Shown here piece by piece: positions 1 to 64,000 of a stretch of 64,000 nucleotides of DNA. A model generated the notes under the pieces. It was not told the origin of the DNA. It saw only the letters and a list, made by a program, of their open reading frames with translations, and searched no databases. The stretch comes from Patiria miniata (lineage: Eukaryota). The translations under genes and the position numbers were made by a program. Within the stretch, counting starts at the first letter, position 1. Every line of letters starts with the position of its first letter. The stretch lies in NCBI RefSeq assembly GCF_015706575.1, contig NW_024037060.1:945983-1009982 (forward strand), read 5' to 3'.

Positions 1-934
1 TTGGCTCCTAATGGCTTAACGGTTTGGAGTGCAAAAGCCATTATATGTACCTTTTTGATGACTCTATTAATTCAAATAACGAAACCTTATATCAAAAAAT
101 CCGATTATTCATTAACGAACCCTTTTTGCCGACAAATTCAGTTGACTCGCCTAAAACGTAATTAAATTTTCTGATCGCATGAAACTTTGTAGAATCGATA
201 TTTTTTCTAAAAGCCCGCAATATTTGTTCATAAAGTGAACACGGTGTCCTGGCGTTCTAATACCAAAACACATTAACTCTAGTAGCAGGTGCAACACAAA
301 CTGCACACAGTCCAATCTTGGTTGTTACGGTTGCACGACTGCAGACATTGCCTCACCCCCCCCCCCCCCTCAGTCCCTGCGCACATGCGGTGATACCTGC
401 AATGATTTGCCCCTACATTTTTTCCTCTTCTTTCCCGCCAAATCTGTAACGAACACAAAAGGCTTTGACGTTGGCTTCTGGTCAGAGATCTGTGACATGA
501 AAGCAACTCCTCCCCGATCGAGCGTCTGCAATACTCGCAGAGGAGATCAAGTTGCACGTATTTTGTAGGATATTTCCCAAGAGATTTTCGCAATGTTCTT
601 CAAACGTACCATTTGGGTAAAAGCAAATAGACCACAGCTGCCCGAGAAAGGAGAATAGACCGTCGCCTCCAGGGAAAGGAGATAATAATAATTTGGGAGG
701 CTAATCATCCTTACTCGCAGCTGGGATGCTGAATTGCGAAGGACGCGGCTACAACGTGGTCGGGCCGCTGGCACGTAAAGGCGCCTCTGGCTGCCAGCCA
801 CATCGACCCATATAAGACCACGGAGCACAGCCTGAGATCGAAAGTGTTTGATTTTTCCGGAGGGAGGAAAACCGGAGGGCCCGGAGAAAAACCCTCGTGG
901 CACAGGAGAGAACCAACGCACAACTCTACTCACA

Positions 935-1012
935 TGCGATCTGCGGCCAGGATTCGAACCGTGGTCACCTTGGTGAGAGGCGAGCGCTTTACGCACACGC
1001 CACCCGTGCCAC
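935..1012 (-). other. tRNA-like 78-nt segment with a perfect B-box (GGTTCGAATCC). It does not fold into a clean cloverleaf and is probably a SINE-derived or tRNA-pseudogene fragment.
   Basis: The minus-strand sequence is GTGGCACGGGTGGCGTGTGCGTAAAGCGCTCGCCTCTCACCAAGGTGACCACGGTTCGAATCCTGGCCGCAGATCGCA. A T-arm is recognisable only with a bulged C. No complementary acceptor stem could be found by eye. Confidence 0.3.
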
Positions 1013-4000
1013 CCTAGATCAGTGGAATTACGGCACACGAAGTAGAATTTTGCACTTAAGTTCCCAAAATTCCCTCAACTACGGACTAGGCCAAAACAGT
1101 TTGCGAAACTGACCGCTTTCTTTTAAAAAATAAATTGCGGAGCATCAATGTACATAGTACAAGGCCCGAACACATGGGCCTCTCACATTTTGTGGGGCCT
1201 CCGGTTCTGTTAATTGTCTACCACTGTTCGTCCTTTAGTGGGAAAAACAAGATTTTGAGCTGGACCCGAAAGCTTCAGTGTAGGACTTTATTTGTACGCA
1301 GTATTAGTCAGTCAGAGGACGATAGTCTGGCCCTTCAGGTTTAGCAAGATCGTACCAATGGGAACGAGGTTGAGGCCAGTCCACAATATGAGATATTGGT
1401 ATATCGTAAATTCATATTGTTAACGTCACTGAGATGATAGCAGTCTACTCGCTCCCAAAACGTGGCGCATTATATTTTTAGTTTTACCAAAGGCTGTAGC
1501 GCATCGCTTGGGCAAAAGGTTTTAATCCCAAATTTGAAATATACATTTAAATGTATATATGAATCTTGAAGTTTTATTTCGAAACGATTTCCTTATTTTA
1601 TTAAGTAGTGCGCACTCGCACTGCGCACTTCATCAAGGCTCCGACCCTCCAGGACGGAGTCTTTATCTAGACGGGTGAAAGACATCGAGCTGTATTCAGT
1701 TAATTTAATTATAGTCCTATGGTTGCGCCTGGGTTTATTTTGTCGCCTAATGGCAATCAGGAGTGGCGATTTATTGTACAATTTGGGGGACCATTAGCTT
1801 GAGAAATTGGGGGGGGGGGGGTTGAACGCTAACATAGTTAGACTGTTTTTCAAGCATGTACGTTTGGACATAAATACATCTGTATTTACGACTTTTCCTA
1901 CCATTATGTAACGTTAAATGATGTATTAAGTTGGTAATGGACGACAGTATATTTGAGCTTATTACAAATTGGAAACACAATTTTTGTGAACGTTTGTGTA
2001 ATTTTGGTAAAGCTTTGCAACGGGATTAATCCCCCCCCCGACTGTCCTCGAGATCGCCACCCGTAGCAATATTTCAAAATTCAGGAAAACAGGTTTCGCC
2101 CCTCTGTACTTCATAAAATTAGGTTGAGTAGAATTTATCCATCTATTACACCCAAGGGGGATTTACCTAACAGCTTGTTTTTCAGGTCGAATGGCACAAA
2201 TTAATTCATAAATCACACTGGTTGTTTTCGCTGCGAATGTAGAACTAAAGCGGCTCATATTATAGCGGTTTTATTATGGGCTATGACTGGTACTTCTTGC
2301 GTCTAGGATCGCACTAATTGCATTCCAATTTTGAGACAACTGCGTTTCATGAGATTTTCTTTTTTTCATTCCTAATTTTCTCTGTTTTTTTCTCTTTAAA
2401 ATAGTGACGGTGGATATATCATGGGTCTCTTAAAGTACAGTGGGTTTGTATTTTGCCCAAATGTTGGTCAACACACCCCCTGCCGTCACTAAGTCTCTTA
2501 GTATACTTGGCAACGGCTGGGGGTAACGCACGTGACCACGGGTAGCCAATCAGCCACTTTCATGGACGCGTGATTTATTGCAAACCGTGGCAAGTTCTAA
2601 GGCGACACTATTTTGTTCACGCGAGACAAAGCTTTTTAGAAAAAAAACTAAAAAAAAATCAATTTCTTTCGTCAATTAATTGGCAATTTTAGTCCCGCTG
2701 GCATCCTTGGGTACGTTTGTGTGAAGCTCCTTGATATACCCTTTCCTGAATTGACAGGTCGTATATTTTTAACTGCTGGAAGTCAAAGCCAATTAGCTAG
2801 CCAACTAATCAGTACAATGCGACACAAACATGACGCCGATTTATTGCGTTTTTGTTATGAAACTGCCTGCGTATGTTCCCTGGAGTCTCGATAATAAGCA
2901 CGGGAAAACAGCACGGAGCTGAAACACTTAATGAGGTAGAAGCCTGAGCCTGCTTCTTCCATGAAATTGAAACGAGCTTCCAATTGTGGCAAACCTCCAT
3001 CAATTTATTTTCATATCCATCACTGTCTAATATGTAACCCTTCATCAGTTCATGGTAATCAGTTCAGCAAACGGTAATTTTTCTGCACTGCTACATATTG
3101 TCAGGTTTGGCTCAAGAGAGGGGGTTAATCGGTCGAGGGTAAGCCCAAGGGGAGGCCGTGATTTTTCCTTTTTTTGCGGCCGGGGGGGGGGGGGTGTTTA
3201 AACCCCCTTACCCCCACCGTAGATCCGGCACTGATTATACACTGCCAGTCTTTTTTGCAAGGTTGTGTGACCTCACTTATCCTGCCAAGAAATAGTTCGT
3301 TCAAACAGCCAAACACGTTGACCTACATCGATGATATTTTAAGATCATAAACGAAAACAAAGTCTTCCTTGGCAAAAGAGGTGCTTCCCCATGTTAATGA
3401 GCTCCTTCGTTCTAGATTTGACTTTCAAATTTCCACCGCCGTGTTTGTTCGAGTAGGAATTTCGCTCTCAGGTTGCGAGTAAACAAGAGATCGGATTATT
3501 ATCATGCTAAAAGGGGCATTCAATTTTTCAAACTTGAATTTGATTTTTCCCCCCTATAGTCGAATAGTACACAGTGGCGTATAAATAGGCATGACCTTCT
3601 TTAGGTGCATTTCAAGGGGGTAACAAAGGCAGTGACACGTATCATTAACAATGCAATATGATTTGTCAAGATCTCAAAAGGGGGGGGGGGGGGTTTGAAG
3701 GGGACGTTTCCCCCCATTGCGTCCCCCAGTAGTTGCGCCACTGGCAGTACATTTCCAATTTTAGGAGGAAAAGGATACGAGAAATAATTCAGAAAACTGA
3801 AAAAAAAAAGCAGCAGAAAACGGGATAACCAATAAAAGGAAAACATCATAAATAAATACTCTTTTTGTCTTATATCTTTTGTATTCTGTAAAATAGTTCA
3901 TTTGTAAAAACAAGGCACTTGAGGGTGGAATATGCAAAACAGTGTGTATTTTTATCTGGTTCTCAATTTTACTCAAGCAATTCATTGAGGTAGCTGAAAT

Positions 4001-55300: not shown

Positions 55301-57674
55301 TAGTGTCTTCCTTCTCTGTTAAAGGTGGAATATTTGTCGTTTGTGCCTCTGTTGTCGGTTCAAGGGTTGATGGAATGATACTGGTAGCATCCTGATTCGT
55401 GGTAGCCACCTCTGTTGACGCTTCTTTGGATGTTACCAGATTGGCCGTAGTACCAACCTCCGTAGTACCTCCTACTGTGGTTAACAAGTCTTGTGTTGTT
55501 TGATCCATTGTAGTTGCTCCTTGTTCAGTGCTTGTTATGAGAGTGGAGGCGAGATCCTCTGTTGAAGGTTCCAGAGTTGTACCAGATTTCTCTGTTGTCT
55601 CGAAAACAGTTGTTAGAACTGCTTTCTCCGTTGTCTCGAAAACAGTTGTTACAACTGATTGAGATGTAGGATGTAATGTAGTGGCTTCCCTCTCTGTTGA
55701 AGGTAGAATATTTGTCGTTTGTGCCTCTGTTGTCGGCTCAAGGGTTGATGGAATGAGACTCGTAGCATCCTGATTCGTGGTAGCCTCCTCTGTTGACGCT
55801 TCTTTGGATGTTGCCAGATTGGACGTAGTACCAACCTCCGTAGTGCCTCCTACTGTGGATAACAAGTATTGTGTTGTTTGATCGATTGTAGTTGCTCCTT
55901 GTTCAGTGCTTGTTATGACAGTGGAGGCGAGATCTTCTGTTGAAGGTCGAAGAGTTGTAAAATATTTCTCCGTTGTCTCGAAAACAGTTGTGACAACTGC
56001 TTTCTCCGTTGTCTCGAAAACAGTTGTTACAACTGCTTTCTCCGTTGTCTCGAAAACAGTTGTTACAACTGATTGAGATGTAGGATGCAATGTAGTGTCT
56101 TCCTTCTCTGTTGAAGGTGGAATATTTGTCGTTTGTGCCTCTGTTGTCGGCTCAAGGGTTGATGGAATGAGACTTGTGGCATCGTGATTCGTGGTAGCCT
56201 GCTCCGTTGACGCTTCTTTGGATGTTGCCGGATTGGGCGTAGTACCAACCTTCGTAGTGGGCTCTATCGTGGATAACAAGTCTTGTGTTGTTTGATCGAT
56301 TGTAGTTGCTGCTTGTTCAGTGCTTGTTATGACAGTGGAGGCGAGTGCTTCCGTTGAAGGCTCCAGAGTTGTACCAGATTTTTCCGTTGTCTCGAAAACT
56401 GTTGTTGCAACTACTGGAGATGTAGGATACAATGTAGTGCCTTCCTTCTCTGATGTGGGTGGGATATGTGTCGTTTGTGCCTGTGTTGTCGCTTCAAGGG
56501 TTGATGGAATGAGACTTGTAGCATCCTGATTCGTGGTAGCCACCTCTGTTGACGCTTCTTTGGATGTTGCCGGATTGACCGTACTACCAACCTCCGTATT
56601 GGTCTCTATCGTGGATAACAAGTCTTGTGTTGTTTTATCGATTGTAGTTGCTGCTTGTTCAGTGCTTGTTATGACAGTGGAGGCGAGATCCTCTGTTGAA
56701 GATTCCAGAGTTGAAACATCCGTTGTCTCGAAAATTGTTGTTGCAACTGCTTGAGATGTAGGATGCAATGTAGTGTCTTCCTTCTCTGTTGTAAGTGGAA
56801 TATTTGTCGTTTGTGCCTCTGTTGTCGGTTCAAGGGTTGATGGAATGAGACTTGTAGCATCCTGATTCGCGGTAGCCTCATCTGTTGACGCAACTTTGGT
56901 TGTTGCAAAATTGACTGTAGTGCCAACCCCCGTAGTGCCTCCTCCTGTAGATAACAAGTCTTGTGTTGTTTGATCGATTGTCGTGGCCACTTGTTCAGTG
57001 CTTGTTATGACAGTAGAAGCGAGGCCTTCTGTGGAAGACTGTAGAGTTGTACCAGATTTCTCCGTTGTCTCGAAAACTGTTGAAGTTCCTTCCTCGCTCT
57101 TTGAAAGAATAAAAGTTGAGTTCACTGTAATGCCATCCTCTTCATTGCTGATGACCGTAGATGGATTGAGTGTCGAGGAGAACTGCTCCGTTTCAACTGT
57201 CATTGTAGTTGCCACTGCGAGTGTGGTAGTATATTGCGTGGTATCTTCCTCTTCCGTCGTAGCTACACTTTTTGTTGTTGGTACATCTGTAGTTGCCGTG
57301 AGGACAGAGCTTTCTTCATTAAAAATTGTTGCTGATTGTGAAATCCCTGCATCTGTTCTCGAATTACCAGTTCTATCCTGCTGGCTGGTTACCGTTAATA
57401 AACTAATGGGTTTTATTGTGCGATCATCTGGTGTTGATGGATTCACAGAAGTTTCACTTCCTAGCGTTTGAGATGTTAGATCATTTCCCGTCGGAACAGT
57501 GTCATTTTTGTGCAGCGTGGTATCTGTTTGGGTAGTTCTTACGGCTTCCGTTGTTATGTCTGTGATGGTTGTGGTGCCTGAAGTTATGGTTGATGTTGTT
57601 TGAGCATCTGCGAAACTTGATTCTGTCATTGGGTATAGCAAAGATGCCACAGCCAACACTGTCCATATTGACAT
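10331..57674 (-). CDS. Giant central exon of a transmembrane mucin. It encodes the signal peptide, a unique Thr/Ser-rich N-terminus (about 235 aa), about 137 tandem 112/114-aa PTS repeats (consensus TTLESSTEDLASTVITSTEQAATTIDKTTPDLLSTIEPTTEVGSTTNQATSKEASTEVATTNQDATSIIPSTLEPTTEAQTTNIPLTTEKEGTTLYPTSQAAVTTVFETTDV) and a degenerate C-terminal repeat region. It ends at a GTACGT donor at 10330/10329. The frame is interrupted many times between about 23.5 and 54.6 kb.
   Basis: One minus-strand frame stays open for 13.4 kb (10179..23543, 4454 aa), and the same repeat continues through abutting ORFs up to 57791. The codon-level periodicity is 336 bp, with a 342-bp variant. Composition is about 30% Thr and about 10% Ser, with Glu/Ala/Pro also common, as expected for an O-glycosylated mucin domain. 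The N-terminus MSIWTVLAVASLLYPMTESSFA-DAQ has a signal-peptide n/h/c layout and a good Kozak context (ACAATGT). The donor GGTACGTG after ...AATTTGATTG leaves phase 1, which joins in frame to the next exon (G+AT = Asp of LIDECA). Confidence 0.75.
10560..57085 (-). repeat. Coding tandem repeat array with unit 336 bp (112 aa) or 342 bp (114 aa, TEKSG variant). There are about 137 copies spanning about 46.5 kb. Interior copies are more than 95% identical, and copies at both edges are degenerate.
   Basis: The array is directly visible in the sequence. For example, identical alternative-frame ORFs recur at 42668, 43004 and 43340 (336 bp apart) and at 21620 and 21956. Two unit subtypes are interleaved: A with ..STIEPTTEVGSTTNQA..TTVFETTDV and B with ..STAGGTTEVGTTANPV..TTVFETTEKSG. 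Confidence 0.95.
57609..57674 (-). other. Predicted initiator ATG (57672..57674) and 22-aa signal peptide MSIWTVLAVASLLYPMTESSFA.
   Basis: A short polar n-region is followed by a hydrophobic core (TVLAVASLLYP) and small residues before a probable cleavage site (SFA|DAQ). An upstream in-frame ATG at 57789..57791 would put this hydrophobic segment 40 residues into the protein, so the 57672..57674 ATG is preferred. Confidence 0.5.
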
Positions 57675-58504
57675 TGTCGGTTTCCGCGGGGTCACAGACA
57701 AACGTCCGACATTTGGAAGCCTCCTGGAGCATTTTTGGAGGAGATTTGTTTCTTTGATTGGTGACAAACTGAATAAACATTTTCCTAACATGGTTCATTG
57801 GAGTACGATGCGCCTATGTGATTTCTTCCGTCAAATAATCCGTGGGAGGATACTGCAGGCTCCACCCTGTGGAAAATAACAGAATGTGGAAAAAGTTTTA
57901 AAGAAAGTATGTGTCGGTTTAAGTTTATTTTCTCTGAAAGTGAAATAGATATTACAAGTAACACAGAGGCACAAAGCTATAATTGCAGAAATCTTCAGGT
58001 TAAGACCCCTATATTATCAATGACTAAAACATAATGTACAAGACCTACTAGTGACCCCTTTGCTCGCCTGTCCCTCTTTCGTCACATACTAAAGAAATAT
58101 CACCTGAGCAACATTTAAGGAAAACTGTATTTGAAACTTTTCAATTTTCTTGAAAATTTGGTATAGGCATACTGTCTAACTCCGTTAGGGGAAGAAAACG
58201 GGCTCACAAACTGCATTTTGAAAGTTAGCCAAGAATTTTTTTAACTGTAGTCAGACGACAACACTTCGACACTAGAGGGCGCAGCTACGCCATTAATCCT
58301 CTCCGTTTATAGTGCGAAAGTTATCCAAGTTGGTGTATTTCTGACCTCTATTTACTGTGATTATGTACCTATAGTGTCGTCGCAACTGGGCAGAGTATGG
58401 TCCAGTATTAATTATAAATAACGTTCAGTTTTACCAATATTATTTTGTGTCTTGTGTTGTGTCTGGTGTAGGTTTCTTTAAAGGACAAATTAGCGGTATT
58501 AGAG

Positions 58505-58687
58505 AGGTTTCGCATGCAAACGGATACGTTTAATGCGACGGATACGTCATCAGTTATGACGTCGTACGCCACTCACTATCCGCTAAACGTGCAGACGACA
58601 CGCATATCTCGCTCGCTACACGTAAGTAAAAAACGGATACGGATAGCTAAACGTAAGTGTAAGCGTATCCGTTCGCTTGCGAAACCT
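58505..58687. repeat. MITE-like element of about 180 bp with 24-bp inverted termini (AGGTTTCGCATGCAAACGGATACG ... CGTATCCGTTCGCTTGCGAAACCT).
   Basis: The termini at 58505..58528 and 58664..58687 are near-perfect reverse complements. The interior carries its own palindrome (gacgGATACGTCATCAGTTATGACGTCgtacg) with TGACGT half-sites, plus repeated acggatac/gtatccgt motifs. Confidence 0.4.
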
Positions 58688-59776
58688 TCCTAATATTATT
58701 ATTATTACACTTACTATTATACGTGTAATAGTACCATTAAGGAGACACATTATCGTAATTTCTTCGCACGATGGGAGACATCTGTCATTAGAAAGACATT
58801 TTCATGTCTCCCTAATGTCGCAGTCCCCCCCCCCCCTTTAGAGGCAAAATTTTGCTGTCGCAATTAGATTATATTTGTTGCTCGTGGTCTAATTAGTAAA
58901 CACACGAAATTCGTAGAAAAAGGACAGGGCACATTTAAGTTTGAAAAATTTTGTGCACAAAATTTCCCAAATGTCCAATCCAGGGTAATATTTGTTATTT
59001 TTATTATTATTATCATTGTTATAATTATAGTTATTTTCTTTTTGTAATCAAATTCAGTTTTGCTGTTTCGGGTGCAGATAGCGGTGGGTATGGGACAGTC
59101 GCCTCCAGCTGCACCAGCCTCCAGATAAGACACACTCAAGTAGATAAACAAGTGGGGATTGCGTGACCGCCCGTGGTTCACAATTTGTGATAAAGTCAAT
59201 TTGCAGAATATGAAGCGGCAGTCAATGGCGTGGACTCATATCCAACCGTGAAGAATCAAAAGTGTCAAATGTTATCAAGGTTAAACACTGTTGACATTCA
59301 CTCTCTGCATCAAGGGTCCGCTAAGTGTATGTGATTCATTTTGACATCTTTCAAATATTGCATGTGCACCACACCCGTTCTTCGCTTTATCTACTACCTT
59401 TTATTCGCTTCAGTATTAACCTCGTTGCCAAGATACTGTTACTGATTTCTTGATGGAATGTTTACCGCGCTGCACTATGGACTCAGCCATGACGGAGTAT
59501 GGGGTAAATAGTGCTAGGAGACTACTTAACATTGCTCATCCTCATCATCCATCAATACAAAGGGCGCTGTTGATCGCCAAGTTTCATCGAGCTCTCATTG
59601 GATGGAGTTTGTTTTACTTGTGACCCGGGGTCGGCACTTCTTGGTGCACACGGGTTTGCACGGAGTGCACACGCAGTGGTCATGGCGGTGAACTGCCCAC
59701 AATACTTTGCGGGGCCGGCGTTTCCTTCACTTTTTCAAAAGAGTTCAAGAGATCAGTTGCGACATTCGCCATAGAC

Positions 59777-59909
59777 TGTATACGTATAGCAGTCATCTTA
59801 GAGGGCAGTGCCTTTGTTTTACTTGGATATGCATGAGTGAACCTTTTGTGCATTCCGTGTTGCTGAATTGAATAACAGATGATGCCCTCTAAGATGGCCG
59901 CTATACATA
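59777..59909. repeat. Hairpin/inverted-repeat element of about 130 bp with arms of about 25-30 bp (tgtatacgtATAGCAGTCATCTTAGAGGGCAgtg ... gATGCCCTCTAAGATGGCCGCTATacata).
   Basis: Arms at 59786..59810 and 59881..59909 are reverse complements with two or three mismatches, separated by about 70 bp. The element sits immediately beside the MITE at 59956. Confidence 0.4.
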
Positions 59910-59955
59910 AGGTCTATTGAGTACCACTTACAATTGCTCGGTTCGACATAGGAGT

Positions 59956-60493
59956 GCGTAGGCGCACGTGCACTGTTACAACTGATAATGTAGTAACCAA
60001 CCGATAACATGTTATCGTTCCATTTGTCAGTGCTGAAGGTCTTTTTTGAAGAAAAAAAAGTGTAACACGGGTAAACATATTAGTTTTTTAAGTACTTTTT
60101 CTGTACCTTTTTTGTCAACTTTATAACAACTTCACTGCCACACATTATCGAAGTAGTAATCACTTGTATTTAAAGATTGTATTTTTGTTATCAGAGTGTT
60201 TGAATGTTTTTGTGGTATTTTGTTAAGTTAACATGGATGAATTAAAAAGAATTCATTCCTGAACATGTTGTGCTAGCAGTTCAATTCGGATACAGTTATT
60301 TTGTAGTTACATTATCCGTCGACACGTGATACATTATCGGATACAAATTTTACTACACGATCAGTCAATGTTTGCTACGTTATCGGTTAGCGATACAATA
60401 TCGATCAATTTGTGATACATTGTCGGTTGGTGATACGTTATCGGTTGGTTACTACATTATCAGTTGTAACATGCACTGCTTCGCGCACGCATG
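59956..60493. mobile_element. MITE-like non-autonomous DNA transposon of about 540 bp with imperfect terminal inverted repeats of about 55 bp and internal tandem sub-repeats (gatacattatcgg / gatacgttatcgg / gatacaatatcga).
   Basis: The left end is gcgtaggcgcacgtgcactgTTACAACTGATAATGTAGTAACCAACCGATAACatgttatcg. The right end (60434..60493) is its reverse complement, with an identical 34-bp core (GTTATCGGTTGGTTACTACATTATCAGTTGTAAC) and outer ends gcactgcttcgcgcacgc. There is no coding capacity. Confidence 0.55.
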
Positions 60494-62905: not shown

Positions 62906-62931
62906 GGGGGGGGGGGGGGGGGGGGGGGGGG
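62906..62931. repeat. 26-nt poly-G tract. It is one member of a dispersed family of short motifs that carry long G or C homopolymers.
   Basis: Other members lie at 356..369 (C), 1809..1821 (G), 2031..2039 (C), 3182..3194 (G), 3680..3693 (G), 58825..58836 (C) and 63087..63107 (C then A). Several share flanking words, for example gagtggcgat...tggggg at 1768 versus the reverse complements of 2030..2075 and 3700..3760. Also ttgg[ag]tgggggg occurs at 62897 and, in reverse complement, at 63400. Confidence 0.5.
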
Positions 62932-64000
62932 TGTTAGACTAATGTTATGAAAATAGTAAAATGGGGCGAACAAAAATACATGGAATGCTAAAGTTCCTAA
63001 ATTTATTCTCATAGCCTTCGAACGTAGGAGAAAGCATTGGATATTTCACAAACTTTACCCTGGGCAAGGTTCTGGACCCCTAGCAACCCCCCCCCCCCAA
63101 AAAAAAATCCACCTTCGTATCAACCCCCCTCCCGTTTCCTGAAAGCTAGATCCGCCCCTGTTCTCGTCTTAAATACTCGTCTTGTTTGAGTAATTAATTG
63201 TTTCACTTCGGGAGGAAGGGAATTCTTTTGGGGGAAAGGAAATTAGAGTTTGCGAGTTAGGAACACATTATTACAAGTTGCTTTTCTAGCAGGCGATTTC
63301 AGAGCGAGGACGGTCTTGAATGATTTGTATTGTTTCCTTTCGTATTTGTAACTCAGGAAACTATCAAAAATTGGATTGGTTGTACAACACGGGTGCATGG
63401 GGGCCTGGGTGTGGGAGTCCGAATCCCCCCATCCCCCCACCCAACTATAGAATCCAGGAAACACACATTTCATGCGAAGAAAGTGTAATGTATACGGATA
63501 ACGTAATTAATACACGTACGAAGCCTGAAAGTAGGAGAACCATGCAGGCCCAACCGCGCCTACCAGGTGGTGTTATTTTTCAAAATAAAACACCGAGGTC
63601 CGTTCTGGCTATTAAACTATTTAGTCAAGTATGACGGCAGGGCATCGCGGCAATTTGTAACTGTGTACGCTGTGAACTGGACAGGGAAACGCCTATAGGA
63701 TATCGCTTGAACGGTATAGGTTCCCTTTTTCCAAAGCTGCACGATTCCAGCGAATTACTATGTCAATACATGGAGTTACATCTCGCCGAATCTTTATATT
63801 CAGGAACTGTTGAGAGTTTACGTCAGCTTGAGCATATTAAAACTAAATGTACCACGGAAAACAAATCAAATATAAGCGAAGGATATTTGCCATTTTGTGG
63901 TTGGAAATTTGTTGGATCATAATCAGCGAAGAATATTTGCCATTAGTAATATATACCTCTATAAAGTTGAATCATTAATGAACGCATTTTTGTGAATTTT

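Follow-up and report, generated by a model that had tools for sequence, protein, structure and literature searches.

Several described groups of mobile elements share with the locus reported here the form of the termini or the length of the target-site duplication. Gypsy LTRs and the Ginger1 and Ginger2/TDD DNA transposons all end in TGTNR-form termini (PMC2836005), and the duplications measure 4 bp in Ginger1, 4 or 5 bp in Ginger2, 6 bp in Polinton and 3-6 bp in LTR elements (PMC10045372). The terminal inverted repeats (TIRs) listed for Ginger2 families range from 45 to 297 bp, in animals Ginger2 elements duplicate 4 bp and prefer AT-rich RTATAY targets, and the Ginger2/TDD group includes the 252-bp non-autonomous Ginger2-1N1_NV (PMC2836005). 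In most LTR elements the ends are TG..CA and the duplication is 5 bp (PMC6839031, PMC10045372). Foldback elements have TIRs of hundreds to thousands of bp and duplications of 8-10 bp (PMC4079207), and for Galileo a passage of the same paper cites the view that tandem repeats within the TIRs can supply extra transposase-binding sites.

We analysed a window of 64,000 nucleotides of Patiria miniata DNA (the window being the whole stretch under analysis) and found in it an intergenic structure of 498 bp, spanning 59974-60471 and ending in TGTTA...TAACA, which probably represents one insertion, young in evolutionary terms, of a non-autonomous TIR DNA transposon of MITE size. The left TIR lies at 59974-60008 on the plus strand and starts with TGTTACAAC, and the right TIR lies at 60437-60471 on the minus strand and ends with GTTGTAACA; the two are complementary at all 35 of 35 nt (100%) and are separated by 428 nt that are AT-rich and without coding capacity. 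When the 35-nt arm was searched for with up to 3 mismatches allowed, only these two sites were found in the 64-kb window, and 0 in 100 dinucleotide-preserving shuffles. An identical inverted core of 34 bp had been recognized in an earlier, sequence-only reading of this DNA; the core is real, but it is 35 nt long. The identity of the arms suggests either recent insertion or homogenisation. The GC content changes stepwise exactly at 59974 and 60471, with 56% and 52% in the two 50-nt flanks and 32% in the element. Folded as single-stranded DNA, the element has a predicted energy of -76.5 kcal/mol (z = -6.0), and it is the 35-bp stem that drives this fold.

The sequence-only reading had also extended the inverted repeats to 55 bp with GC-rich tips, within limits of 59956-60493. 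We found no support for the tips, as the outward alignment needs three gaps and two mismatches; when the 30-nt outer flanks were aligned in inverted orientation and the score was compared with that of shuffled sequences, the shuffles did equally well in 20-23% of cases (p about 0.2). The limits of the element are corrected here to 59974-60471. The apparent complementarity beyond the core arises because TGCA, within a direct repeat TGCAC that adjoins both arms, is itself palindromic. The heptamer GCGCACG is also present in direct orientation in both flanks, at 59962-59968 and 60483-60489 (shuffle p about 0.03-0.04). The insertion may lie in a short patch of GC-rich repeats or palindromes, which would have misled the 55-bp reading.

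The direct repeat TGCAC is a candidate target-site duplication, its left copy (59969-59973) being identical to its right copy (60472-60476) and each adjoining a TIR. A 5-nt direct repeat at such spacing occurs at 0.24% of positions, as counted empirically in the non-mucin parts of the window. The uninterrupted target is reconstructed as ...GCGCACGTGCACTGCTTCGCG..., with the palindromic hexamer GTGCAC, and the empty site expected without the insertion would read ...GGCGCACGTGCACTGCTTCGCGCACG.... As TGCA is palindromic, another possible reading of the TGCAC pair is a 5-nt extension of the TIRs with a bulge, and a third is a 4-nt TGCA duplication with one unmatched terminal C; the length of the duplication is most safely given as 4-5 nt. 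The flanks read ...GTGCAC on the left and TGCACT... on the right, so that the TA or TTAA duplication suggested before is absent, and a Tc1/mariner (Stowaway-like) or piggyBac MITE is rejected for want of either duplication.

Both ends of the element are built of short repeated units. The 13-nt motif GATACRTTATCGG, with no more than 2 mismatches, has 8 matches in the whole window against 1.45 expected; 6 matches fall within 139 nt, from 60306 to 60444, and each TIR adds one copy with 3 mismatches. For the same stretch Tandem Repeats Finder gives periods of 18 and 40. A longer unit of 18-22 nt, with the consensus GTGATACATTATCGGTTGGT, is built around the motif, and the TTATC/GATAA core of this unit has a density of 20 per kb in the element versus 2.9 per kb in the background. 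Seven forward units of 18-22 nt make up a right sub-terminal array at 60304-60471 (plus strand), of which the outermost two are the right TIR. At the left end, the TIR consists of two 18-nt units in reverse orientation and is followed directly by one forward unit; where the reverse unit meets the forward unit, at the inner edge of the TIR, there is a perfect 16-nt palindrome, CGATAACATGTTATCG (60002-60017). The units are thus unequal in number between the ends, about 7 in the right arm versus about 2 in the left. Between them lies an AT-rich central filler (60018-60303, about 30% GC) that lacks long ORFs and tandem structure; forward TTATC occurs there twice in isolation, at 60145 and 60188. 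The 13-bp sub-repeats that had been described as forming the interior are therefore a real motif, but they occur only in the right-hand 170 bp; the interior is not made up of them throughout, as 60018-60300 is non-repetitive. The 18-22-nt units are probably transposase-binding sites.

The longest ORFs in the element are 54 aa. A search of its concatenated six-frame peptides against 5.8 billion proteins gave no relatives at E<=1, and an Rfam search over 58-64 kb of the window gave nothing relevant. The 64-kb window contains one copy of the element, and neither a further copy nor an empty-site paralogue turned up when the non-mucin parts of the window were compared with themselves by BLAST. When contig collections from metagenomes, prokaryotic genomes and viruses were scanned for exact matches to the TIR 20-mer ACTGATAATGTAGTAACCAA, 7 matches were returned, all of them bacterial or metagenomic; these are rejected as chance matches, as the similarity ends with the 20-mer. 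In the literature on echinoderm MITEs and on TU/foldback elements we found nothing specific to this element.

It is the combination of small size, perfect TIRs, an abutting direct repeat, a GC step, sub-terminal repeats and no coding capacity, each directly observed in the window, that leads to the reading as a non-autonomous TIR transposon. The earlier assignment to the non-autonomous DNA transposons thus stands on its structural hallmarks, although not with a 55-bp TIR or a TA/TTAA duplication. The element shares with MITEs a length below 800 bp, perfect TIRs next to a short duplication, an AT-rich composition, the lack of coding sequence, an intergenic position close to a gene and a fold as a long hairpin; unlike MITE families, which are defined by high copy number, it is known here from one copy. 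Its mobility, the size of its family, the identity of its transposase and any effect on the neighbouring mucin gene are inferred. A transposase encoded elsewhere in the genome would bind the repeated 18-22-nt units through their 13-nt core, the outermost two units on each side making up the 35-nt TIR, and would cleave at the TG...CA termini. Re-integration would then proceed via a staggered cut of 5 nt (possibly 4 nt) in the palindromic GTGCAC and would leave the TGCAC duplication.

The inverted arms could also have arisen in place, through copying of a 35-nt segment in inverted orientation or as a decayed foldback, in which case the structure would be a local, immobile palindrome, unique in the genome. 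One occurrence is what is visible in the 64-kb window, as such an origin predicts. However, a 5-nt direct repeat lies exactly at the arm ends, which by chance would be the case at 0.24% of positions, and the abrupt GC step and the asymmetric array of units fit an insertion and not an in-place duplication; we regard a local palindrome as very unlikely. A palindrome created by the assembly is rejected, as the inversion is limited to the 35-nt ends and the interior is not inverted. A retroviral-type integrase could instead have inserted an LTR retrotransposon, of which recombination between the LTRs left a single LTR of 498 bp. The TGTTA...TAACA (TG...CA) ends, the 5-nt flanking repeat and the length of 498 bp are all compatible with a solo LTR, and solo LTRs of Gypsy, Copia and BEL elements resemble the element in their TG...CA ends, 5-bp duplication and size of about 0.5 kb. 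Tandem sub-repeats are also found in the U3 enhancer regions of LTRs, which is a further point for this explanation. The inverted repeats at LTR termini, however, are normally imperfect and between a few and about 20 nt long, and those of Gypsy, Copia and BEL solo LTRs are usually far shorter and less perfect than the ends of this element, whose arms match at 35/35 nt and are each made of two units that resemble binding sites. Moreover, neither an internal sequence bearing a PBS or PPT nor a second LTR is present in the window. The 35-nt perfect arms, their composition of repeated units and the asymmetry of the sub-terminal array thus favour a TIR transposon, and a solo LTR is unlikely.

If the element is a TIR transposon, it may belong to any of several superfamilies with short duplications, and a KolobokP solo LTDR, a Transib element and a member of an hAT lineage with 5-bp duplications were weighed together as an improbable alternative. 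KolobokP solo LTDRs of 428-483 bp, with 4 or 4/5-bp duplications, are present in 11-863 copies in P. miniata (PMC9587614), so that host, size and duplication length all resemble those of the element. In contrast, KolobokP termini are of the form RR..YY (GGGTGC...GCACC, with GG...CC at the very ends) and their TIRs measure 18-20 nt, whereas the element has TG...CA ends and TIRs of 35 nt; KolobokP is excluded by these termini. The motifs of the element are absent from the supplement of the KolobokP paper (PMC9587614). There is no sequence similarity between the two either, as BLASTN with four of the six consensus sequences published for the P. miniata LTDRs gave no match in the element, and the best match elsewhere in the window was at E=0.09. 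An assignment to Transib was rejected as well, as CAC-type ends would leave unmatched flanks (ACGTG versus CACTG). In its favour, we counted that Transib elements make 5-bp duplications and that P. miniata is reportedly mentioned in a paper on Transib and the RAG1-RAG2 locus. The termini of hAT elements follow YARNG, a form that the TGTTA termini of the element do not fit, and hAT was rejected on this ground. The element also invites comparison with foldback-type transposons such as Drosophila FB, Galileo and Tetris, as its ends consist of short tandem units in numbers that are unequal between the arms; the sea-urchin TU elements, too, are of foldback type, with tandem repeats in their TIRs. 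Unlike foldback elements, the element inverts only 35 nt and has a 5-nt duplication.

For the non-autonomous TIR transposon that we favour, the TGTNR-form termini together with the 4-5-bp duplication point to an integrase-type enzyme, and we tentatively prefer an integrase-like DDE transposase of the Ginger2/TDD type over Tc1/mariner, piggyBac, hAT and Transib. The TGTTA...TAACA termini fit the Ginger2/TDD form 5'-TGTNR...YNACA-3', the duplication is 4-5 bp and the ends are TIRs, not LTRs; on the other hand, the TIR of 35 nt falls short of the 45-297 bp of Ginger2/TDD. The target GTGCAC has the same palindromic R-NNNN-Y form as RTATAY, but it is GC-rich. A search with a Ginger2 profile, built from the alignment in the supplement of PMC2836005, gave 828 protein matches, and no Patiria or other echinoderm name appears among the 120 matches listed; neither an integrase-like transposase linked to the element nor an autonomous partner was identified. 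It would go considerably further to propose that the element represents the first recognised echinoderm MITE family of integrase type (Ginger2/TDD-like), and/or that its array has been co-opted as a cis-regulatory module, and we hold this to be rather unlikely. Such a Ginger2/TDD-like family could insert at palindromic targets that are GC-rich and duplicate 5 bp there. As for the array, the ten units containing TTATC/GATAA, which stand 2.3 kb upstream of a mucin gene of roughly 47 kb, could by their sequence serve, for example, as sites for GATA factors.

This mucin-like gene occupies much of the window. ORFs at 10179-57791 on the minus strand make up a giant Thr/Ser-rich mucin-like array of about 47 kb, whose tandem unit is 336 bp (112 aa) with 96% matches. 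The mucin-like ORF has a signal-peptide ATG at 57674 on the minus strand, and the element lies in intergenic DNA 2.3 kb upstream of it, in agreement with the distance of 2.2 kb from the mucin start reported in the sequence-only reading. Exons at 7.3-9.9 kb, also on the minus strand, encode EGF, SEA, EGF and transmembrane segments and share 99% identity with the NCBI entry "uncharacterized protein LOC119729475 [Patiria miniata]" (530 aa), which identifies the window as DNA of the bat star; this NCBI model appears to omit the mucin repeat array.

Other small structures are found around the element. A second hairpin had been noted beside it at 59777-59909, and it does exist, with arms of 27 nt at 59781-59807 and 59883-59909 (89%); the arms are 75 nt apart and can be extended to about 37 nt at 84% over 59771-59917. 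This hairpin has no clear flanking duplication and no second copy in the window. At 58497-58695 there is a MITE-like structure with 36-nt arms that are 86% complementary and 127 nt apart; it has TA on both sides if its TIR is read as TTAGAGAGG.../...CCTTCCTAA, it includes several CGGATACG sub-repeats, and it may be a Tc1/mariner-type MITE. With two further small TIR-like structures thus lying within about 1.5-2 kb, the intergenic region appears to accumulate small transposons. Farther away, a 26-nt poly-G run (62906-62931) is followed about 145 nt downstream by a complementary C-rich run (63080-63098), a pair that could form a hairpin-like or low-complexity structure. Near the other end of the window, an ORF at 547-1038 (minus strand) translates as '...HQGDHGSNPG...', the pattern of a tRNA T-arm-like GGTTCGAATCC, which suggests a tRNA-derived SINE fragment; ARAGORN called no tRNA anywhere in the window.

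Nothing at this locus points to an unusual mechanism, and the element should be regarded as ordinary repeat biology in an echinoderm genome, with little consequence beyond repeat annotation. As it lies upstream of a giant mucin gene, the element is a candidate transposon-derived regulatory sequence. If the family is confirmed, a non-autonomous element with TG...CA ends and a 5-bp duplication would join the catalogue of sea-star repeats, and it would provide a handle for finding its integrase-like transposase.
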